Of a stretch of DNA of 64,000 nt, positions 3 to 55,208 are shown in pieces (within the stretch, counting starts at the first letter, position 1; every line of letters starts with the position of its first letter). The position numbers and the translations under genes are program-made. The stretch is from an uncultured Planctomycetia bacterium (GTDB lineage Bacteria > Omnitrophota > Gorgyraeia > Pluralincolimonadales > Pluralincolimonadaceae). The notes beneath the pieces are model-generated. The model had not been told where the DNA came from. It did not search any database and saw nothing but the letters and a program-made list of their open reading frames with translations. The stretch is from positions 12,304-76,303 of the forward strand of contig CAZYUB010000005.1 in the NCBI GenBank assembly GCA_964650515.1, given 5' to 3'.

Positions 3-269
3 CTGACGGAAGTCGGCTATAAGAGCTCCACCGGCGCGGCGAAAGCCCCGTGGGAGCACCAGCTCGGCAGGGAGGTCGACCTCGAACTGCAGAAGGACTG
101 CTACACCGCGATGCTCGAGGCGTTCTGGGACAAACCGTGGTTCTACGGAATGTATTGGTGGTACTGGGGAACAAATGATAGAATGGGCGGAAGCACCGAC
201 CGCGGGTTCAATATACAGAACAAGCCCGCGCAGGACGCCGTGAAAGAATGGTACGGAAAAACGCGTTAA
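3..269 (+). CDS. C-terminal fragment of a glycosidase-like protein. The 5' end lies outside the window. It ends ...PWFYGMYWWYWGTNDRMGG...KEWYGKTR*. It may be a clan GH-A TIM-barrel hydrolase such as a mannanase, given the GH130 gene downstream.
   Basis: Open frame from the window edge to TAA at 267-269. The Trp/Tyr-rich C-terminal strand is typical of the last beta-strands of GH-A enzymes. It is followed by an AGGAGG RBS and the GH130 gene. The family assignment is a guess. Confidence 0.35.
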   Translation: MTEVGYKSSTGAAKAPWEHQLGREVDLELQKDCYTAMLEAFWDKPWFYGMYWWYWGTNDRMGGSTDRGFNIQNKPAQDAVKEWYGKTR

Positions 270-45646: not shown

Positions 45647-47155
45647 GTGGCCCTGACTTTTTCTCACGTGAAAAAGTATTTTGTCTTATCCGCGATAGGG
45701 GTGGCCCTTTTCATGCTGGTAAAAGGGTCACCCTCGTATTCGAGGTCTTCCGAAGCGAGCCCGGGCACGAGGTCATACGCGCACTTCCTGATGGGCGCGG
45801 TGCTCGACGGCGAGAGCAAATTCGAAAAGGCCATCGAGGAGTACAAGCTCGCGTTGAAGTCCGACCCGGGTTCTTCCACGGTAAACACGAGGATAGCCCT
45901 CGATTACATAAGGCTCAACAAGCCTGACGAGGCCTCGAAGTACCTCGATACAGCCATAGCGAAGGATCCCGACGATACGAAGGCCAGGTTCATCCTCGCG
46001 CTGCTCCATACGATAAACAAGGACTACGACGGGGCGGCGAGGCAGTACGAGGAGATAGTAAAGAGGGACCCGCACGACATAAAAGCCCTCGCTTCGCTCG
46101 CGGACCTCTACGTGTTGCAGCAGAAGATAGAGGAAGCTGCGCAGGCCTACGAGAGCATCCTGAAAGAAGGCAAGAGCTCGAGCCTGATCCATTTTACCCT
46201 CGGGATCTTTTACAGCAAATTAGAGAAATATGACGATGCGCTTTCGCATTTAGACGAGGCGCTGAAGATCGACCCCGATTACTCCGAAGCGCGGCTGAGC
46301 AGGGCCATACTTTACGAGCTTAGGGGCGACTACCCGAAGGCCGAGGAGGACTACAAAAAGATACTCGAGGCCGAGCCGCTGAACACGAAAGTATACAAGC
46401 TGCTCGCGCACGCGTATTACAGGGACGGCAAGACCGGCGAGGCGATAAAGACGTACAAGCTCGCGGTCGACCTCGAGCCGGACAAGGCGGACGGTTATCT
46501 TGAGCTCGCCTACCTCTACCTTAACGAGAAAAAACCGGACGACGCTATAAAGCTGCTCGATAAGGCGGCGGCCCTTAAGGACGAGCCGATGATAAGCGTC
46601 GTCTATATAGTAAAGGGCATGGCGTACTCGCAGAAGGGGCAAAACGACGAGGCGGTCAGGTCGCATAAGAGGGCGGTGGAGCTCGCGCCCAACGATGCGG
46701 AAGGGTATTTTTACCTCGGAGCGGCGTACGAGAAGCAGGGCGACAAAGAGAACGCTAAAGCGCAGCTGAAGAAGGCGATAGAGCTGAACCCGAAACATGC
46801 CGACGCACTGAACTACCTCGGGTATATGTACGCCGAAGAAGGCGTGAACCTTGACGAGGCGGTAGGGATGATAAAACGCGCGATCGAGATCAGCCCGAAC
46901 AACGGCGCGTACGTGGACAGCCTCGGCTGGGCTTATTACCGGAAGGGCATGACCGACGAGGCGATAGCGCAGCTCGAGAAGGCGGTGGCGCTCTACGGCA
47001 AGGACCCGATCCTGTACGACCATCTCGGCGACGCTTATTCGAAGAAGGGACTCAAGGACAAGGCGAAGGACTGCTGGAAAAAGTCCCTGGAACTGAAACC
47101 CGACCAGAAGCAGGTCAGGGAAAAACTGGAAAAATCCGAAAGAGCCCAAAAATAG
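45647..47155 (+). CDS. TPR-repeat protein with an N-terminal signal/anchor.
   Basis: 502 aa with more than 10 TPR units (for example AEGYFYLGAAYEKQGDKENAKAQLKKAIELNPKHADALNYLGYMY). Confidence 0.7.
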   Translation: MALTFSHVKKYFVLSAIGVALFMLVKGSPSYSRSSEASPGTRSYAHFLMGAVLDGESKFEKAIEEYKLALKSDPGSSTVNTRIALDYIRLNKPDEASKYLDTAIAKDPDDTKARFILALLHTINKDYDGAARQYEEIVKRDPHDIKALASLADLYVLQQKIEEAAQAYESILKEGKSSSLIHFTLGIFYSKLEKYDDALSHLDEALKIDPDYSEARLSRAILYELRGDYPKAEEDYKKILEAEPLNTKVYKLLAHAYYRDGKTGEAIKTYKLAVDLEPDKADGYLELAYLYLNEKKPDDAIKLLDKAAALKDEPMISVVYIVKGMAYSQKGQNDEAVRSHKRAVELAPNDAEGYFYLGAAYEKQGDKENAKAQLKKAIELNPKHADALNYLGYMYAEEGVNLDEAVGMIKRAIEISPNNGAYVDSLGWAYYRKGMTDEAIAQLEKAVALYGKDPILYDHLGDAYSKKGLKDKAKDCWKKSLELKPDQKQVREKLEKSERAQK

Positions 47156-47983
47156 ATGAACAGGCCAAGCGTAGAACAGCTTAAGGGGATAGCGAAGGAG
47201 ATAAGGAAGGACGTCGTCACGATGCTTTCCGAGGCAGGCTCGGGGCATACTTCCGGTTCGCTTTCGTGCGTAGATATCATTGTCGCGCTGTATTATTACA
47301 AGCTGCAGAACGACCCGAAAAACCCAAAGTGGGCCGACAGGGACAGGTTCATACTTTCAAAGGGCCATACTTGCCCGACGCTCTACGCGGTGCTCGCGCG
47401 CAGGGGATTTTTCCCTTGCGAGGAACTCATGACACTGCGCAAGCGCGGCTCGATATTGCAGGGGCACGCGAGCCTTTGCACGCCCGGATGCGAAGCATCG
47501 ACCGGTTCGCTGGGCCAGGGGCTTTCGATTGCCAACGGCGTCGCGCTGGCGGCGCGGCTTGACTTCAAGGATTACAGGATATACTGCCTTATGGGCGACG
47601 GCGAACAGGACGAGGGCCAGGTATGGGAGGCCGCTATGACAGCCGCCCATTACAAGATAGACAACCTCTGCGCGATAATAGATTACAACAAGCAGCAGAT
47701 AGACGGATGGCTCAGCGATGTCAAGAACATCGAGCCGCTCAGGGAAAAATGGTCGGCGTTCGGATGGAACGTCATCGAGGCGGACGGCCATGATTTCAAG
47801 CAGTTGATGGACGCGCTCGACAAGGCGGAGATGATAAAGGGCAAGCCGACCGTCATAATAGCGCATACGGTCAAGGGCAAGGGCGTCTCGTTCATAGAGA
47901 AGAACTCGGTCGGTTTCCACGGCACGGCACCCAAGAAGGCCGACCTGGAAAAGGCCATAAAAGAGATAGAAGAGGGGATATAA
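47156..47983 (+). CDS. Transketolase, N-terminal (TPP-binding) subunit.
   Basis: GSGHTSGSLSCVDIIVALYY...DRFILSKGHTCPTLYAVL...LMGDGEQDEGQVWEA. It is a separate 275-aa ORF. Confidence 0.85.
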   Translation: MNRPSVEQLKGIAKEIRKDVVTMLSEAGSGHTSGSLSCVDIIVALYYYKLQNDPKNPKWADRDRFILSKGHTCPTLYAVLARRGFFPCEELMTLRKRGSILQGHASLCTPGCEASTGSLGQGLSIANGVALAARLDFKDYRIYCLMGDGEQDEGQVWEAAMTAAHYKIDNLCAIIDYNKQQIDGWLSDVKNIEPLREKWSAFGWNVIEADGHDFKQLMDALDKAEMIKGKPTVIIAHTVKGKGVSFIEKNSVGFHGTAPKKADLEKAIKEIEEGI

Positions 47984-47987
47984 TCAA

Positions 47988-48929
47988 ATGGCTGACCTGA
48001 AACCTACACGCGACGGGTTCGGAGAAGCGCTCGTCGAACTCGGGAAGGTGAACCAGAACGTCGTTGTGCTCTCCGCAGACCTTACGTCTTCGGTCAGGGC
48101 CAACTGGTTCAGGGACAAATATCCCGAGAGGTTCTTCGATTTCGGGGTCGCCGAGCAGGACATGATGTCCGCGGCCGCCGGTTTCGCTTTAGGCGGCAAG
48201 ATACCTTTCGCGGCGACGTTCGGCATCTTCGCGTCGGGGCGCGCGTGGGACCAGATCCGCTTGTCGATATGCCATATGAACCTTAACGTGAAGGTCGTCG
48301 GCAGCCACGGCGGGATCTCCGTCGGGCCGGACGGCGCGTCGCACCAGGCGCTCGAAGAGATTACGTTGATGCGCGTGCTTCCCAACATGACGGTCATAGT
48401 GCCGTGCGATTCCGAAGAGGCGCGCCTCGCTACACTAGCCGCAGCTACGCATAAGGGGCCGGTCTACCTGCGCCTCGGTCGCGAGCCGTTCCCGATCATC
48501 ACAAGTTACAAAGGGGATTACAAGATAGGGAAAGCGGTGACGATGGCCGACGGTTCGGACCTCACGATAGTCGGCACCGGCATAATGGTCCAGGAGGCGA
48601 TGAAAGCCCTTGAAGACCTGAAGAAGCAGGGCATATCGGCCCGCGTGATAGACCTTCATACGATAAAGCCCATAGACAAGGATACGCTTATAAAGGCGGC
48701 AAAGGAGACGGGCGCGATAGTCACCGCGGAAGAGCATACGGTCGTGGGCGGCATGGGAAGCGCCGTAGCCGAAGTGCTCGCCGAGAACCAGCCCGCGCCT
48801 GTCCGTATGGTCGGCATGAGGGACAGGTTCGGTGAATCCGGGGAAGCGAGGGACCTCATGAAGTATTTCGGCCTCGACTCCGCGGGCATCGTGAAGGCCG
48901 CGCTCGAAGTCCTCAAGCTGAAAAAGTAA
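47988..48929 (+). CDS. Transketolase, C-terminal (pyrimidine-binding) subunit.
   Basis: DFGVAEQDMMSAAAGFALGGKIPFAATF...GPDGASHQALEEITLMRVLPNM. 313 aa. Confidence 0.85.
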   Translation: MADLKPTRDGFGEALVELGKVNQNVVVLSADLTSSVRANWFRDKYPERFFDFGVAEQDMMSAAAGFALGGKIPFAATFGIFASGRAWDQIRLSICHMNLNVKVVGSHGGISVGPDGASHQALEEITLMRVLPNMTVIVPCDSEEARLATLAAATHKGPVYLRLGREPFPIITSYKGDYKIGKAVTMADGSDLTIVGTGIMVQEAMKALEDLKKQGISARVIDLHTIKPIDKDTLIKAAKETGAIVTAEEHTVVGGMGSAVAEVLAENQPAPVRMVGMRDRFGESGEARDLMKYFGLDSAGIVKAALEVLKLKK

Positions 48930-49792
48930 TGCTTTCGGTAACCTTAAAGTCACCCGCCAAGATAAACCTTTACCTCAGGGTCCTCGGCAAGAGGCCCGAC
49001 GGTTACCATGATATCGAGACCATCTTCGAGCGCATAGACCTCTGCGACGAACTCTCCTTCAGGCCAATCCCGGAACAGATCGTCGTAAAATGCGACGACC
49101 CGCAAGTGCCTTGCGACCAGCGCAACCTTGTATATAAGGCCGCGCAAATGCTCAAGGACCGCTACGCGATACCTTCCCTCGGAGTGGAGATAACATTAAA
49201 GAAGAATATACCGGTCGCCGCGGGCCTCGGAGGCGCCAGCTCGAACTGCGCCTATACGCTGCGCGGCTTGAACGAATTATGGGGGCTTAAACTGGAAAAG
49301 CGGGAGATATTCGAGATCGGCAGCGCGATAGGGGCCGATGTCGCCTTCTTCCTGCTGGATACCGGCAGGGCGATAGGCCGAGGCAGGGGCGAGGCCCTCG
49401 AGGCGGTGCCCCAGGGCGCCGACTTCTGGTACCTGCTCGTGAACCCGGGCTTCCCGGTGCTCGCAAAAGACGCCTATCAGGGCCTAAATTTGGGCTTGAC
49501 ACCCACCCCCGGCCATAGTAGAATCAATCCCGCGTCTCTTGAGGGTATCGATACCGATAGGCTTAAGGGGCTAATATTTAATAGTTTAGAAGACCCGGTG
49601 GTTCGCAAGCACGTTGCCATCTCCGAGATCAAGTCAGAAATCACCAGATCCGGGCTTAAAGTAGTAATGATGAGCGGAAGCGGGCCAACTGTCTTTGGAG
49701 CGGCCTCAAGCAAGGAAGAGGTCCTCGATGCCAGGAGCAGGCTTGCGTTAAAGGAGGGCTGGCGGGCTTTCATCGCGTCAACGCTTTGGTAG
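48929..49792 (+). CDS. ispE: 4-diphosphocytidyl-2-C-methyl-D-erythritol kinase.
   Basis: The N-terminal PAKINLYLRVLGKRPDGYHDIETIF is a GHMP kinase motif. The ATP-binding loop reads IPVAAGLGGASSN. Confidence 0.85.
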   Translation: MLSVTLKSPAKINLYLRVLGKRPDGYHDIETIFERIDLCDELSFRPIPEQIVVKCDDPQVPCDQRNLVYKAAQMLKDRYAIPSLGVEITLKKNIPVAAGLGGASSNCAYTLRGLNELWGLKLEKREIFEIGSAIGADVAFFLLDTGRAIGRGRGEALEAVPQGADFWYLLVNPGFPVLAKDAYQGLNLGLTPTPGHSRINPASLEGIDTDRLKGLIFNSLEDPVVRKHVAISEIKSEITRSGLKVVMMSGSGPTVFGAASSKEEVLDARSRLALKEGWRAFIASTLW

Positions 49793-49831
49793 GCCGGCCG
49801 CTTTCATCCATGGCAAAAAGGAGCGGGTCAG

Positions 49832-50266
49832 ATGGTCATTACCGAGGTAAGGGTCTTTCTTAAGGAAGGTCAGGACAAAAAACTAAAAGCATACGCAACG
49901 GTGACATTTGACAATTGTTTCGTAGTAAGGAATATTAAGGTAATAGAAGGACAGAAGGGGCTGTTCGTAGCGATGCCTTCGAGGAAGATGAAGGAGTCGT
50001 GCCCGAAGTGCAGGTTCAAGAACGTCGTTCGTTCAAAATATTGCAATAACTGCGGCGGTAACCTGGAGAACATCGTCCGCCCGGCGGCTAAATCGCCGGA
50101 GGAAGAGGCCTCGGCCCGCCAGTCAGAGCATAAAGATATAGCCCATCCGATCACTCTCGAGTTCAGGGAGCTGATCCAGAAGAAAGTCCTGGACGCTTTC
50201 GACGGCGAGAAGAAGAAGGGCCCCGCCCCCGTCAGAGGGGGAGATTACGCAGAAGAAGAGGACTAA
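49832..50266 (+). CDS. spoVG: SpoVG-family protein with an inserted CxxC-x12-CxxC zinc ribbon of about 45 aa.
   Basis: The SpoVG core reads [52 protein letters not shown] ... [22 protein letters not shown]. An insertion ([38 protein letters not shown]) interrupts it. An AAAGGAG RBS lies upstream. Confidence 0.8.
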   Translation: [144 protein letters not shown]

Positions 50267-50278
50267 TCCCACAGGGAT

Positions 50279-50310
50279 AGGCCTACCCGCTCCACTAAGG
50301 GTAGGGCCTA
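50279..50310 (+). terminator. GC-rich hairpin (AGGCCTACCC / GGGTAGG(G)CCT, 10 bp with one bulge) between spoVG and tRNA-Gln. It could be a terminator or an RNA-processing structure.
   Basis: Read from the sequence. Only a weak T-run follows (TAGTTTGAATTCTT). Confidence 0.3.
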
Positions 50311-50331
50311 GCCCAGTAGTTTGAATTCTTC

Positions 50332-50405
50332 TGCCCGGTAGTGTAAAGGTAGCACACGAGAATTTGGATCTCGGCGTTGAGGTTCGAATCCTCACCGGGC
50401 AACCA
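50332..50405 (+). tRNA. tRNA-Gln (anticodon UUG) with the CCA end encoded.
   Basis: Cloverleaf folded by hand. The 7-bp acceptor stem UGCCCGG/CCGGGCA includes a U1:A72 pair, as in E. coli tRNA-Gln. The D-stem is GUGU/GCAC. The anticodon stem is CGAGA/UCUCG with loop AUUUGGA. The T-arm is UGAGG-UUCGAAU-CCUCA. The discriminator A is followed by CCA. Confidence 0.8.
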
Positions 50406-50421
50406 GTGCGGGACATATAAA

Positions 50422-51663
50422 ATGGCAGAAAGATGCTCGTTTTGCGGGAAATCCCGCGAAAAAGTAAAGAAACTTTTCTCCGGGCAGGGCGCATATATCT
50501 GTGAGAGCTGCGTCAAGCTTTGCAGCCAGATACTGTCCAGCGACGAGGAAGAGGAGCTGAAGACCAAGCGTGAGGCGAAGGTCAAGGAACTCCTGAAGCC
50601 CGCGGAGATAAAGCGCCAGCTCGACCAATACATTATCGGCCAGGAGCGCGCAAAGCGCCAGCTTTCGGTCGCCGTCTACAACCATTACAAGAGGATAATA
50701 ACGCAGGCCCAGAACCGCGACGTCGAGTTCGAGAAATCGAACGTGTTGCTTATCGGCCCGACCGGTTCGGGAAAGACGCTGCTTGCCAGGACGCTCGCGA
50801 AGGTCCTCGATGTGCCGTTCGCCCTCTGCGACGCGACTCCCCTTACGGAGGCGGGATACGTCGGAGAGGACGTCGAGAACGTGCTACTGCGGCTCCTGCA
50901 GGCGTGCAACTACGACGTGAAGCGCGCGCAGTTCGGCATAATATATATCGACGAGATAGACAAGATAGGTAAGACGCAGGAGAACGTCTCGGTAACGAGG
51001 GACGTCTCGGGCGAGGGCGTCCAGCAGGCGCTGCTCAAGATACTCGAAGGCACGACCGCGAACGTGCCGCCTCAGGGCGGAAGGAAACACCCCCAGCAGG
51101 AATATATCCAGATAGACACGACGAATATACTCTTCATATGCGGCGGGACGTTCTCGACGCTCGACAAGATAATCGAACGCAGGGCCGGAAAGAAGACGAT
51201 AGGGTTCAATAACCAGGAAGACAGGACGAAGAAGCTCGGCGAGGTGCTCTCGCAGGTCGAGCCGGAGGACCTGCTGAAGTTCGGCATGATACCCGAGTTC
51301 GTCGGGCGTTTCCCGGTCGTCGCGACGCTGAACCCTCTCGACGAGAAGGACCTTATCGAGGTCCTCGTAAGGCCGCGGAACTCGCTGATCAAGCAGTACA
51401 CGAAATTTTTCGAGATGGAGAACGTGAAGCTTTCGTTCCCGGACGAGGCGCTTGCCGCTATCGCGAAGAAAGCGATGCACAAGGGCACCGGAGCCAGGGC
51501 GCTGCGCTCCATCCTCGAGGAGATAATGTTCGAAGTGATGTATGATATCCCTTCTCAGAACGAGATTGCGGAGTGCGTCATCACGCCTGAATGCATAACG
51601 CGCGGGGTCAAGCCCATACTGATCACCCGCGACGAAGAAAAAGACAAGCGTAAGATAGCGTAG
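50422..51663 (+). CDS. clpX: ATP-dependent Clp protease ATP-binding subunit ClpX.
   Basis: N-terminal zinc-binding domain CSFCGK...CESC. Walker A motif [14 protein letters not shown]. Characteristic IYIDEIDKI segment. The ATG at 50422 was chosen; the track's TTG start at 50377 would overlap the tRNA. Confidence 0.9.
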
Positions 51664-51675
51664 AAGGCGGTTTAA

Positions 51676-52947
51676 TTGAGCGGTTTCGGCTGCATAATCC
51701 TTGCCGCCGGCAAGGGCACGCGTTTTTTTTCGGATACTCCGAAAGTCCTGCATGACCTGCACGGTGAACCCGTCCTGCAGCATGTCCTGGAGACGGCGAA
51801 GTCGGCGGGATTCCGCCGTCCGGTCGTCGTCGTGGGGCGCGGGTCCGACGCGCTGGAGCGCTTTCTCAAAGGCCGCGCGGCGCCTGTAGTCCAGAAGAGG
51901 CAGCTCGGTACCGCAGATGCGGTAAAGTCGGCCGAAAGGCAGCTTTCGAAGTACGATGATATTGCGGTCCTCTACGGCGATGTCCCGCTTGTGCGCGAAG
52001 AGACGCTGAAGTCGCTGGTCGGGTCCCATAAGGCGTCGGGCGCGTCATGCACGGTGCTGACCGTGGAGATGGATGACCCTTCGGGATACGGCAGGATCGT
52101 GCGCGGCATCTTAGGCGACGTCGAAGCGATCGTCGAGGATAAAGAGGTGTCCAAAGAAGAGAGGGAGATCCGCGAGATAAACGTCGGGCTCTACTGCTTT
52201 GACAATAAAGACCTTTTCGGCGCAATAAAAAGGATACGCAAGTCAAAAATAAAGAAAGAATATTACCTGACGGACGCTATAGCAATACTGATATCCGCGG
52301 GAAAGCGGGTCAGGGCTTTCAAAACCAGGGATCCCGACGAGTCGATCGGGATGAATTCGAGGTCTGATTTGGCGAACGCATATTCGATAATAAGCAGGAG
52401 GAAAGCGTCGGAGCTGAACAGTGGCTCCGTGACGGTGCTCGACCCGGCCTCGACGTTCATCGCGCCGGACGCGAAGATCGGCAGGGACACGGTGATATAT
52501 CCTTTCACGGTCATCGAGAAAGGTGTCGTTATAGGCAGGCGCTGCTCGATAGGGCCGTTCTGCAGGCTCAGGCCCGGAACCGTCATAGAGGACGATGCCG
52601 AAGTAGGCAATTTCGTCGAGGTTGTCCGCAGCAGGATAGGCAGCGGGGCCAAAGCGAAACATTTGACGTACCTCGGCGACTCCGTCATAGGTAAGGGCGC
52701 CAACATAGGTTGCGGGACCATCACGGCGAATTACGACGGCAGGAAGAAGAGCAGGACGTCCGTGGGGGATAAAGCGTTTATCGGGAGCGGCACGGTACTT
52801 GTCGCGCCCGTGAAGATAGGCAGCGGCGCGGTAACGGGCGCCGGAAGTGTCGTGTTAAAAAATAAAAATGTGCCGGCGCGCAAAGTCGCGGTGGGTGTAC
52901 CGGCGAGGATATTGGACAGGTCTAAAAACAAAAAGGGAAAAAGATGA
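51676..52947 (+). CDS. glmU: Bifunctional UDP-N-acetylglucosamine pyrophosphorylase / glucosamine-1-phosphate N-acetyltransferase.
   Basis: The N-terminal nucleotidyltransferase motif is ILAAGKGTRF. The C-terminal left-handed beta-helix hexapeptide repeats are present. Confidence 0.85.
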   Translation: MSGFGCIILAAGKGTRFFSDTPKVLHDLHGEPVLQHVLETAKSAGFRRPVVVVGRGSDALERFLKGRAAPVVQKRQLGTADAVKSAERQLSKYDDIAVLYGDVPLVREETLKSLVGSHKASGASCTVLTVEMDDPSGYGRIVRGILGDVEAIVEDKEVSKEEREIREINVGLYCFDNKDLFGAIKRIRKSKIKKEYYLTDAIAILISAGKRVRAFKTRDPDESIGMNSRSDLANAYSIISRRKASELNSGSVTVLDPASTFIAPDAKIGRDTVIYPFTVIEKGVVIGRRCSIGPFCRLRPGTVIEDDAEVGNFVEVVRSRIGSGAKAKHLTYLGDSVIGKGANIGCGTITANYDGRKKSRTSVGDKAFIGSGTVLVAPVKIGSGAVTGAGSVVLKNKNVPARKVAVGVPARILDRSKNKKGKR

Positions 52948-53900
52948 AGATCAACGGTAACCTGCTTGTTTTTTCCGGGAATGCGAACCCCGCGCTTGCC
53001 AAGAGGATATGCGCCCACCTGAAGGTCCGCCTCGGCAACGCTTCCGTCGACAGGTTCAACGACGGCGAGATAAGGGTGCGCGTCGACGAGGATGTCAGGG
53101 GAAAGGACGTATTCATAGTCCAGCCGACATGCTTCCCCGGCAACGATAACCTCATGGAGCTGCTTATACTGATCGACGCGGTCAAGCGCTCGTCCGCGCG
53201 CCGCATCACGGCAGTCATGCCGTATTACGGATACAGCAGGCAGGATAGGAAGGACCGCCCCCGCGTCCCGATAACGGCGAAACTCGTCGCGAACCTCATA
53301 ACGGTCGCGGGCGCGAACAGGGTCCTCACGATGGACCTGCATGCCGGGCAGATACAGGGATTTTTCGATATACCGCTCGATAACCTTTTCGCGGTAAATA
53401 CGTTCATGCAGCATTTCGAGAAGAGGCACCTTCCCGACCTCGTCGTCGTATCGCCGGATGTCGGAAGCATAAAGATGGCGCGCGCGTACGCGAAGAAATT
53501 CAAGTCGGGGCTGGCCGTCGTAGACAAGAGGCGCATAAACGACAAGCAGGCCGAGGTGATGAACATAATGGGCGAGGTCAGGGGTAAGAACGTCTGCCTT
53601 ATAGACGACCTCGTGGCTACAGCCGGCACGCTCGTCGAAGCCGTAGCGGCGCTGAAGAAGGCGGGAGCGAAGAAGGTCTTCGCAGCGGCCACGCACGCGG
53701 TCCTTTCGGGCCCGGCCATAGAGAGGATACAGGATTCCGAGCTCGAGGAGCTCATAGTGACGGACACTATCCCGATACCGAGGGAGAAGATGATACCGCA
53801 GATAAAGGTATTGTCGGTAGGCCCCCTGCTGGGCCAGGCGATAGCGAGGATACACAAAGAGCAATCGATCAGCATACTGTTCGATAAGGTCTACCAATAA
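52944..53900 (+). CDS. prs: Ribose-phosphate pyrophosphokinase.
   Basis: LLVFSGNANPALAKRICAHL...DLHAGQIQGFFDIPLDNL...VVSPDVGS...CLIDDLVATAGTL. Confidence 0.9.
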   Translation: MKINGNLLVFSGNANPALAKRICAHLKVRLGNASVDRFNDGEIRVRVDEDVRGKDVFIVQPTCFPGNDNLMELLILIDAVKRSSARRITAVMPYYGYSRQDRKDRPRVPITAKLVANLITVAGANRVLTMDLHAGQIQGFFDIPLDNLFAVNTFMQHFEKRHLPDLVVVSPDVGSIKMARAYAKKFKSGLAVVDKRRINDKQAEVMNIMGEVRGKNVCLIDDLVATAGTLVEAVAALKKAGAKKVFAAATHAVLSGPAIERIQDSELEELIVTDTIPIPREKMIPQIKVLSVGPLLGQAIARIHKEQSISILFDKVYQ

Positions 53901-53924: not shown

Positions 53925-54626
53925 ATGGAACAGGTAAAACTGGAAGTCAAAGTAAGGAAAGAGACGGGAAAAGAGGCCGCGAAGCGCGAGCGCGAAAAGG
54001 GCATCATACCCGCCGTCGTATACAGGAAGGGCGAGAACGCGATGCCGCTCTACCTGGACAGGAAGGCGATGGAGACGGCGCTGCATACGTCGGCCGGAGA
54101 GAACGCGCTTATCAATCTCAAGATAGAGGGCGATGAGAAGGCGAAGGCGAAGACGTGCATAATAAAGGAAATACAGCATGACCCGCTCAGCGGCAATATC
54201 CTGCATGTGGATTTCAACGAGATATCGCTGACCGAGGAGATAAAGGTAGACGTACCGCTTGCAGCCAAGGGCGAGGCCGTCGGCGTCAAGCAGGACGGAG
54301 GCGTGCTCGAGCATCTGCTCTGGGAGATTCAGGTCGAGTGCTTGCCTACGGATATCCCGCAGAAACTTGAGGTCGATGTCAGCAACCTCAAGATCGGCGA
54401 TGCATTGTTCATCAAGGACATAGCCGTTCCTAAGGGAGTCAAGATACTCAACGACCCGGACGTCAGGATATTCGCGGTCGAGAAGCCGATAGAGATCAAG
54501 CCCGAAGAGGCGGTTGCCGCGGCGGAGACAGCTCCTGCGGAACCCGAAGTGACTAAGCAGAAGAAACCCGAGGAGATAGCAGCTGAAGATGCTGCGAAGG
54601 CCAAGGCCAAGGAGAAGAAGGAATAA
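53925..54626 (+). CDS. rplY: Ribosomal protein bL25 / general stress protein Ctc.
   Basis: N-terminal L25 domain (KLEVKVRKETGKEAAKREREKGIIPAVVYRKG) with a C-terminal Ctc-type extension and an acidic/lysine-rich tail. Confidence 0.8.
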   Translation: MEQVKLEVKVRKETGKEAAKREREKGIIPAVVYRKGENAMPLYLDRKAMETALHTSAGENALINLKIEGDEKAKAKTCIIKEIQHDPLSGNILHVDFNEISLTEEIKVDVPLAAKGEAVGVKQDGGVLEHLLWEIQVECLPTDIPQKLEVDVSNLKIGDALFIKDIAVPKGVKILNDPDVRIFAVEKPIEIKPEEAVAAAETAPAEPEVTKQKKPEEIAAEDAAKAKAKEKKE

Positions 54627-54635
54627 CGGCGCCCG

Positions 54636-55208
54636 ATGAAATTGATCGTCGGCCTGGGTAACCCGGGAACGAAGTACGAAAGGACTCGGCACAACGTCGG
54701 ATTCATGGTGGCTTCGGCGCTGGCCGGTAAGCACGGCATAAGGTTAAGCTCCAAAGCGTACGATTCGCTCGTTGGAAAAGGGAAGTTATGCGGAGAGGAA
54801 GTCGCGATCGCGTTGCCCCAGACATATATGAACAGGTCGGGGCAGGCGGTGGCATCCCTCTCTTCGCGCAGGAAGGCGGGCCCCGCGGATATACTCGTCA
54901 TCTGCGATGACGTGAACCTGGAGCTCGGGATAATAAGGATCCGGGCCGACGGCTCTGCGGGCGGGCACAACGGCCTCGCTTCAATAATAGAGCACCTCGG
55001 CAGCTGCGATTTCGCGCGCCTGAGGATAGGCATAAGCCGCAGGGGAGGCCCCGCGTTAAGCGGTTACGTCCTCTCGCCTTTCACAAAAAGTGAGATTGAA
55101 ACGCTCGGATGTACCATAGAGAAAGCAGTGGAATGCTGCGAGACATGGGCCAGGGACGGCGCCGAACGCGCAGCGAACTTGTTTAACGCTAAGAATAGAA
55201 AGGAATGA
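54636..55208 (+). CDS. pth: Peptidyl-tRNA hydrolase.
   Basis: MKLIVGLGNPGTKYERTRHNVGFM and the HNG motif (GGHNGLASI). Confidence 0.85.
   Translation: MKLIVGLGNPGTKYERTRHNVGFMVASALAGKHGIRLSSKAYDSLVGKGKLCGEEVAIALPQTYMNRSGQAVASLSSRRKAGPADILVICDDVNLELGIIRIRADGSAGGHNGLASIIEHLGSCDFARLRIGISRRGGPALSGYVLSPFTKSEIETLGCTIEKAVECCETWARDGAERAANLFNAKNRKE

Follow-up and report, generated by a model that had tools for sequence, protein, structure and literature searches.

SpoVG is a widespread and pleiotropic bacterial protein, with effects on sporulation, virulence, biofilm formation and antibiotic resistance. To our knowledge, its recognition of DNA and RNA is poorly defined, with only two determinants mapped and no structure of a complex. 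In the S. aureus protein, DNA binding requires each of K50 and R51, the basic doublet that follows AMPS, and the sequence specificity is determined by six residues of the helix (S66-E71, SDMRQE) (Jutras 2013, PMC3688583). The canonical SpoVG proteins (PF04026) are those of Firmicutes and spirochaetes, with structures from B. subtilis and S. epidermidis and DNA/RNA-binding regulators described in S. aureus, Borrelia and Listeria, and none of the canonical structures contains a metal site. For the Planctomycetes, a conserved signature indel of 32-36 amino acid (AA) residues has been described in SpoVG by Gupta, Bhandari & Naushad (2012, PMC3444138); the insert is treated there only as a phylum-specific marker and said to be absent outside the Planctomycetes, and neither zinc nor cysteines are mentioned. 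Here we describe the spoVG gene in a 64,000-nucleotide stretch of DNA (the window; contig CAZYUB010000005.1, positions 12,304 to 76,303) from an uncultured Planctomycetia bacterium placed by GTDB in the Omnitrophota. Its product carries, between the counterparts of the two mapped S. aureus determinants, an insert that begins with a putative four-cysteine (Cys4) zinc ribbon.

The spoVG open reading frame (ORF; Table 1) is single and without interruption, has an ATG start, and is preceded by GGAG 9 nt upstream of the ATG. The protein matched the Pfam family SpoVG (PF04026) with 103.1 bits against a gathering threshold of 29.6 (E 8.8e-30), residues 1-124 covering model positions 1-81 of 82, and the same family was matched by all 50 of the relatives tested. 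A Foldseek comparison of the AlphaFold2 (AF2) model with the PDB returned the SpoVG crystal structures 2i9x, 2i9z, and 2ia9 at probability 1.0 (E 4e-6 to 1e-4; target template modelling score 0.71-0.87), and together these two results bear out the identity proposed in an earlier note, which was made from the sequence alone. The window protein has the same fold as canonical SpoVG and shares with it the AMPS-[KR][KR] doublet, the DIAHP motif, and the C-terminal helix; both the R51-K52 doublet after AMPS and the D102-I-A-H-P106 motif before the helix are present and conserved. At position 100, the window protein has H where canonical SpoVG has F. The equivalog model NF009749 of NCBIfam ('septation regulator SpoVG') scored 96.4 bits against a cut-off of 108, with its match split in two by the insert, and relatives are called 'SpoVG family protein' at NCBI because this cut-off is missed.

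The insert was delimited by PDB alignments to 2i9z, 2i9x, and 2ia9, which are the only solved SpoVG proteins; a PDB search found no solved structure with the insert. Query residues 2-53 aligned with chain residues 5-55 and query residues 98-129 with chain residues 58-89, and residues 54-97 (44 AA) stand where canonical SpoVG has two residues, a net gain therefore of 42 AA. The distance from AMPS to DIAHP is 55 in the window protein versus 13 in the canonical form. The turn of two residues that joins the doublet to the GEFRD strand thus gives way to a ribbon and linker of 44 residues. The ribbon has the CPxCG-like pattern C-x2-C-x10-C-x2-C-G, or more finely C-x2-C-x3-N-x6-C-x2-C. The earlier note had recognized an insertion relative to canonical SpoVG, and the PDB alignments confirm it. 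The span of 49985-50131 (residues 52-100) given there, between AMPSRK and DIAHPI, framed the insert correctly, but the length of about 45 residues was too high for a net gain of 42 AA and the spacing CxxC-x12-CxxC was a miscount, the real one being CxxC-x10-CxxC. What had been called an acidic linker is indeed a linker but only mildly acidic (net -1), and the acidic C-terminus GGDYAEEED is present as reported. The possibility raised there that the cysteine segment is common to all SpoVG proteins can be set aside, as it is absent from the Firmicute SpoVG structures.

Conservation of the ribbon was followed in three sets of homologues from independent searches: the best 120 of 5204 from a protein search, the best 150 representatives of clusters at 50% identity, and 119 new top hits of a profile built from the more distant, Planctomycetota type. 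The pattern C-x2-C-x10-C-x2-C was found at the same site in every one of the first set (120/120; 136-193 AA), and the ribbon in 148/150 of the second and 119/119 of the third, a recurrence that goes far beyond chance. The cluster search, exhaustive over 1.84 billion representatives, reached 4528 clusters at E<=1e-3, of which 1658 remained when E<=1e-10 was required, and the Planctomycetota-type profile gave at least 8000 proteins at E<=1e-10. In an alignment of 149 sequences of both types, C57, C60, C71, and C74 were invariant and N64, R67, and G75 nearly so, N64 being kept in 98-100%; L78, R96, and H100 were well conserved (R96 in 87-93%), and residues 79-95 were highly variable.

Codon comparison of the window gene with 22 Omnitrophota loci gave the ratios of nonsynonymous to synonymous differences (pN/pS) listed in Table 1, which are crude values since pS is saturated in the distant loci; strictly informative are the near relatives L002, L003, and L006, whose ribbons had a pS of 0.60-0.73 and a pN of 0-0.02. 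By this comparison the ribbon is evidently under purifying selection. Its net charge was +5 in the window protein, +4.0±0.3 in 120 Omnitrophota relatives, and +3.6±1.1 in 141 diverse representatives, and at least +1 in every sequence examined. Two relatives carried insert variants with extra CxxC pairs (P0233 and P0253), one of which (P0233) adds CPNCG…CDRC as another ribbon behind the first one, and the insert site therefore tolerates further elaboration.

The nature of the insert was examined with family profiles and by modelling. Among 50 members of the subfamily, PF12773 (DZR) was matched at E<=0.01 by all 50 (best E 2.5e-6), PF13240 (Zn_Ribbon_1) by 47, and the RanBP2-type finger PF00641 by 24, and precomputed matches to PF12773 or PF13240 are recorded on many relatives. 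The AF2 model built from 149 diverse sequences, which replaced an earlier one from 50 close relatives with a ribbon predicted local distance difference test (pLDDT) score of about 50, had a mean pLDDT of 77.4, with 80-91 in the core, ~81 over residues 51-80, ~59 in the linker, and <50 in the tail. In this model, strands 50-52 and 100-102, which canonical SpoVG connects through its two-residue turn, are separated in sequence by the short ribbon strands 54-56 and 63-65. The structure prediction that the earlier note had suggested as a check thus gave a well-scored ribbon once the alignment was deep, and the zinc ribbon it had proposed is supported by this score, by the four invariant cysteines, and by the DZR and PF13240 matches. 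Judged from these sequence features, the four cysteines would bind a single structural metal, in all likelihood Zn2+; the sequence is compatible with Fe(Cys)4 as well.

Three known groups of metal-binding modules resemble the ribbon. The short bacterial ribbons of PF13240 and PF12773, such as the N-terminus of S. aureus TcaA, to which a weak match was found, have the same CPxCG-like pattern; these are usually terminal modules, whereas the window ribbon is nested in the hairpin of another domain. The RanBP2-type and NZF fingers (PF00641) have the consensus W-x-C-x(2,4)-C-x3-N-x6-C-x2-C (PMC6384913), and the window ribbon matches their Cys/Asn spacing exactly (C57-x2-C60-x3-N64-x6-C71-x2-C74) and conserves the equivalent of R19 as R67, but lacks the leading Trp (E55 instead). 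Fingers of this type that bind single-stranded RNA (ssRNA), among them those of ZRANB2 and RBM5, need an aromatic residue at position 17 together with R19 and R20 (PMC6384913). At the first of these positions, some half of the sequences of the Planctomycetota type have His in place of V65, and S68 may be Ala; membership in the ZRANB2-like ssRNA-binding subclass was considered and rejected, the aromatic residue 17 and R20 being missing. Finally, nested zinc knuckles such as the one in the connective peptide of methionyl-tRNA synthetase (MetRS) likewise place a Cys4 knuckle in a loop of a host domain. Weak profile matches to MetRS residues 122-189 concern the knuckle only, and the host domains are not homologous.

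The insert is not peculiar to the window genome. We scanned one genome per GTDB species with the patterns EH[KR]DIAHP and D[KR]KLKA[YF]AT, which are typical of the Omnitrophota type and bias the hits to that phylum, and confirmed at least 547 loci, of which the best 80 were almost all titled Candidatus Omnitrophota or Omnitrophica and included Ca. Velamenicoccus archaeovorus LiM, whose genome is complete. The closest locus among the matches listed (L001, JBAZJG010000004.1) was 98% identical, and the window is accordingly of Omnitrophota origin. The more distant type comprises proteins named as Planctomycetota, Phycisphaerae, Sedimentisphaerales, or Phycisphaerales and includes that of the cultured Anaerohalosphaera lusitana. 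No third phylum appeared among the named clusters (3 of 20 named: two Planctomycetota and one Omnitrophota) in this survey, which was not exhaustive. The alignment with orthologues proposed in the earlier note as a measure of how widespread the insertion is has therewith been made, and it finds the insert in homologues of both Omnitrophota and Planctomycetota; on the sequences sampled, the ribbon insert is apparently the rule in the two phyla. Metagenome-assembled genomes (MAGs) titled 'uncultured Planctomycetia/Planctomycetales bacterium (binchicken…)' (loci L005, L011, L018, L028, L035-L037, L039, L040, L043, L052, L054, L064, and L065) have an Omnitrophota-type SpoVG (61-92% identity) and the tkt-ispE-spoVG synteny where upstream sequence suffices, and these labels are probably generic. 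Two MAGs each had two zinc-ribbon spoVG loci with ispE upstream (L031 and L046 in JAUYPN01, L058 and L068 in JAHFGO01), representing either true duplication or mixed bins.

Set against the indel of 2012 (PMC3444138), the Planctomycetota-type insert stands at the same site, and its net length of 36 AA fits the published one. The existence of the insert is therefore not new. The Omnitrophota insert is longer, at 40-42 AA (42 in the window protein), and runs throughout that phylum, and the restriction of the indel to Planctomycetes does not hold, since Omnitrophota-type patterns recover it from at least 547 species-representative genomes. In the searchable literature we found no description of the insert as a Cys4 ribbon, of its place between the binding determinants, or of its sharing with Omnitrophota.

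The position of the insert suggests what it may do. It lies between R51-K52 and TLEFRE (residues 108-113), which are the counterparts of the two S. aureus determinants, and we favor a modified nucleic-acid-binding surface because the insert sits between the basic doublet and the specificity helix and because the charge of the ribbon is invariably positive. In the very large subfamily that Omnitrophota and Planctomycetota have in common, a module of ~36-42 AA is inserted at the tip of the β-hairpin that bears the basic doublet, with the 25-AA, putatively metal-binding Cys4 ribbon coming first and a flexible, poorly conserved linker leading back to the EHKDIAHP strand and the C-terminal helix. 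In the mechanism that we propose, the metal bound by the four cysteines would make of the ribbon a rigid knuckle whose basic residues K59, K63, R67, and K69, together with an aromatic one at 70, come to lie next to R51/K52 and the specificity helix. This knuckle may enlarge or re-shape the DNA/RNA-binding pocket and so change its affinity or ligand preference, with the linker giving slack only. As a whole, a Cys4 metal knuckle that modifies the nucleic-acid-binding pocket of SpoVG, with the linker as slack, seems to us the best explanation, and we assign it a probability of roughly 0.55; that the ribbon itself contacts nucleic acid we would put, from the sequence features, at even odds.

Several observations weigh against this explanation. 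The orientation of the ribbon toward the binding pocket is suggested by chain topology only, and the ligands of many RanBP2/NZF-like ribbons are proteins rather than nucleic acids. The window protein scores below the curated cut-offs of all three ribbon families (21.2 versus 27.3 for DZR, 13.7 versus 25 for PF13240, and 12.8 versus 27 for RanBP), and the Foldseek matches of the ribbon to zinc fingers, which include eL40, NZF, RanBP2/Nup153, MDM2, RBM5, and ZRANB2 fingers at a root-mean-square deviation of 0.8-3 Å over 24-33 residues, are local and non-significant (E>1). Of the ssRNA-binding triad, whose equivalents here are V65, R67, and S68, only R19 is kept.

Some of the same observations can be read in favor of a protein-protein docking module, in which the ribbon, instead of contacting nucleic acid, would attach SpoVG to a partner (for example the ribosome, a protease adaptor, RNA polymerase, or a further SpoVG subunit), and the disordered tail with its conserved tip would serve the same kind of interaction. 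Ubiquitin-binding NZF, Ran-binding Nup153/RanBP2, and MDM2 fingers are among the closest local structural neighbours of the modelled ribbon, most of the residues with which RanBP2 fingers canonically bind ssRNA are missing, and the long disordered tails of relatives end in conserved short motifs typical of partner docking. However, the uniform, strong positive charge of the ribbon and its place between two DNA-binding determinants suit contact with nucleic acid better, and the gene neighbourhood offers no candidate partner, since ispE alone is constant and clpX is adjacent in a few close relatives only. We therefore regard docking as possible but, on balance, unlikely.

An improbable reading is that the Cys4 site is a regulatory sensor, either a redox or metal switch or a rubredoxin-like Fe(Cys)4 center, in which oxidation or metal loss unfolds the knuckle and switches SpoVG activity. 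Cys4 knuckles of the form CPxC...CxxCG are indeed common to zinc ribbons and rubredoxins, and invariant cysteines fit a sensor and a structural role alike. On the other hand, no sequence feature separates a sensor from a structural site, the short PF13240/PF12773 Cys4 ribbons are generally regarded as structural in their family descriptions, and the subfamily covers two phyla, so that no single redox habitat accounts for the ribbon.

A neutral, lineage-specific embellishment, that is, a stable mini-domain tolerated in a surface loop, would be in keeping with a surface turn able to accept insertions, with the varying length of the linker, and with the double ribbon of one relative. We consider it very improbable, as the residues N64, R67, G75, L78, and R96, none of them a metal ligand, are conserved across two phyla, the ribbon is under purifying selection of a strength similar to that seen in the core, and it is kept nearly throughout the ~390 homologues sampled. 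A sequencing or assembly artefact (a frameshift, as the earlier note had allowed for, a chimera, or an erroneous fusion of two ORFs) can be dismissed, given the continuous ORF and the independent assembly of this architecture in thousands of proteins and in at least 547 genomes representing species, among which those of Ca. Velamenicoccus archaeovorus and Anaerohalosphaera lusitana are complete.

Apart from the ribbon, the subfamily is marked by its C-terminal tails, which are disordered and rich in P, R, E, G, A, and D. Their median length is ~175 AA in the 50%-cluster representatives, with a maximum of ~390 AA, and ~20 AA in Omnitrophota. The tails end in conserved tips: 112 of the 150 representatives have …[DE][DE]xxFG[AE]G[IL][LF], many Omnitrophota have …DIEL or …EGDLEF, and the proteins resembling those of Sedimentisphaerales have …VPE[IV][IV]; in the clade of the window protein the tip is acid-only (…YAEEED). 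This layout recalls the linker and acidic tip of the single-stranded DNA-binding protein SSB. A more far-reaching conjecture would join these features and make ribbon SpoVG a functionally distinct hub, in which the ribbon gives a new mode of nucleic-acid binding, the tail with its conserved acidic-hydrophobic tip (…DDxxFGAGIL or …DIEL) recruits partners or, by folding back, auto-inhibits the basic site in the manner of SSB, and the insert is a rare genomic change uniting Omnitrophota and Planctomycetota; we think it doubtful that all of this holds together. As a separate observation, one metagenomic protein (P0128, 388 AA) shows an unusual architecture, its single chain consisting of four SpoVG domains in tandem that lack the ribbon (MPNYK…DEFRD motifs).

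The genomic setting speaks to the descent of the gene. In the window the order, by Pfam annotation, is hisG, a TPR protein, the N- and C-terminal transketolase genes, ispE, spoVG, tRNA-Gln, clpX, a glmU-like gene, prs, rplY (L25/Ctc), and pth. We take the B. subtilis order to be ispE-purR-yabJ-spoVG-glmU-prs-ctc-pth. A purR-yabJ-spoVG-glmU arrangement, with spoVG and glmU adjacent, is conserved in staphylococci (PMC8949118), and the canonical neighbourhood thus shares with the window ispE upstream and glmU-prs-rplY-pth downstream. Because the window gene sits in the ancestral spoVG locus, it is the positional orthologue of canonical spoVG and not a paralogue. Taken with its sequence and selection, we consider it nearly certain that the window protein is a genuine, selected SpoVG orthologue with a Cys4 ribbon.

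In the Omnitrophota, ispE was directly upstream of spoVG in 78 of the 80 loci, the other two having no upstream sequence, and a GHMP kinase was directly upstream of spoVG in two Planctomycetota loci. Across the Omnitrophota loci, SpoVG was more conserved than IspE (61-98% versus 31-94% identity). The block tkt(N)-tkt(C)-ispE-spoVG is kept across these loci. By comparison, of the 80 loci only those of the closest relatives (L001-L013, L017, L022, and L064) have tRNA-Gln and clpX between spoVG and glmU, and a functional link between spoVG and clpX was rejected, the adjacency being confined to close relatives. The mechanically called clpX ORF starts at a TTG (50377) that overlaps the tRNA; the C4 zinc finger of ClpX lies at residues 4-39, and the real start is probably the ATG at 50422. 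An Rfam scan of 47000-53000 found no RNA element except the tRNA, and a search of the + strand for promoters and terminators gave nothing above shuffle expectation. A G+C-rich hairpin at 50274-50314, just past the spoVG stop (-26.1 kcal/mol; z -1.8 versus shuffles; no T-run), may represent a variant terminator or else, standing before the tRNA, a signal for processing.

Table 1. Positions of spoVG, its parts, and the neighbouring genes in the window, with pN/pS where calculated
Feature	Position	Strand	Residues or size	pN/pS	Basis or remark
spoVG, zinc-ribbon subfamily	49832..50266	+	144 AA plus stop		ORF, Pfam, Foldseek
N-terminal SpoVG β-sheet core	49832..49990	+	1-53	0.08	aligns with 2i9z 5-55; pLDDT 82-91
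Basic doublet R51-K52 after AMPS	49982-49987	+	51-52		equivalent of S. aureus K50/R51
Inserted Cys4 ribbon (putative zinc ribbon)	49991..50065	+	54-78 (25 AA)	0.17	invariant Cys; DZR/PF13240 matches; pLDDT ~81
Codon of C57	50000-50002	+	57		
Codon of C60	50009-50011	+	60		
Codon of C71	50042-50044	+	71		
Codon of C74	50051-50053	+	74		
Variable linker of insert	50066..50122	+	79-97 (19 AA)	0.55	high column entropy, length varies; pLDDT ~58-60
C-terminal SpoVG core (SEHKDIAHP strand and long helix)	50123..50221	+	98-130	0.13	aligns with 2i9z 58-89
TLEFRE	50153-50170	+	108-113		counterpart of S. aureus specificity segment SDMRQE
Helix	within 50123..50221	+	109-129		pLDDT 80-90
Disordered C-terminal tail, acidic tip	50222..50263	+	14 AA	0.47	pLDDT <50; net charge -4
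Transketolase, two genes	47156-48929		N-terminal 275 AA, C-terminal 313 AA		directly upstream of ispE
ispE (GHMP kinase)	48929..49792	+			Pfam GHMP_kinases_N/C; 39-nt gap to spoVG
tRNA-Gln (UUG)	50332..50405	+			ARAGORN; Rfam tRNA 59.4 bits
clpX	50422..51663	+			Pfam zf-C4_ClpX and AAA_2
glmU-like gene	51676-52947	+			Pfam NTP_transferase and Hexapep
prs	52944-53900	+			Pfam Pribosyltran_N
rplY/L25-Ctc	53925-54626	+			Pfam Ribosomal_L25p and TL5_C
pth	54636-55208	+			Pfam Pept_tRNA_hydro

The practical effect of these results is modest, in that the insert accounts for the failure of these proteins to reach the cut-off of the NCBI SpoVG equivalog model. They also correct a published 'Planctomycetes-specific' marker, since the indel is found in Omnitrophota as well, and this bears on the relationship of the two phyla; if true, the insert as a rare genomic change uniting both phyla would contradict its Planctomycetes-only status. 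For the SpoVG family itself, the subfamily offers a natural experiment on the binding site, in which comparison of ribbon-plus and ribbon-minus proteins could reveal the face of SpoVG that contacts nucleic acids.

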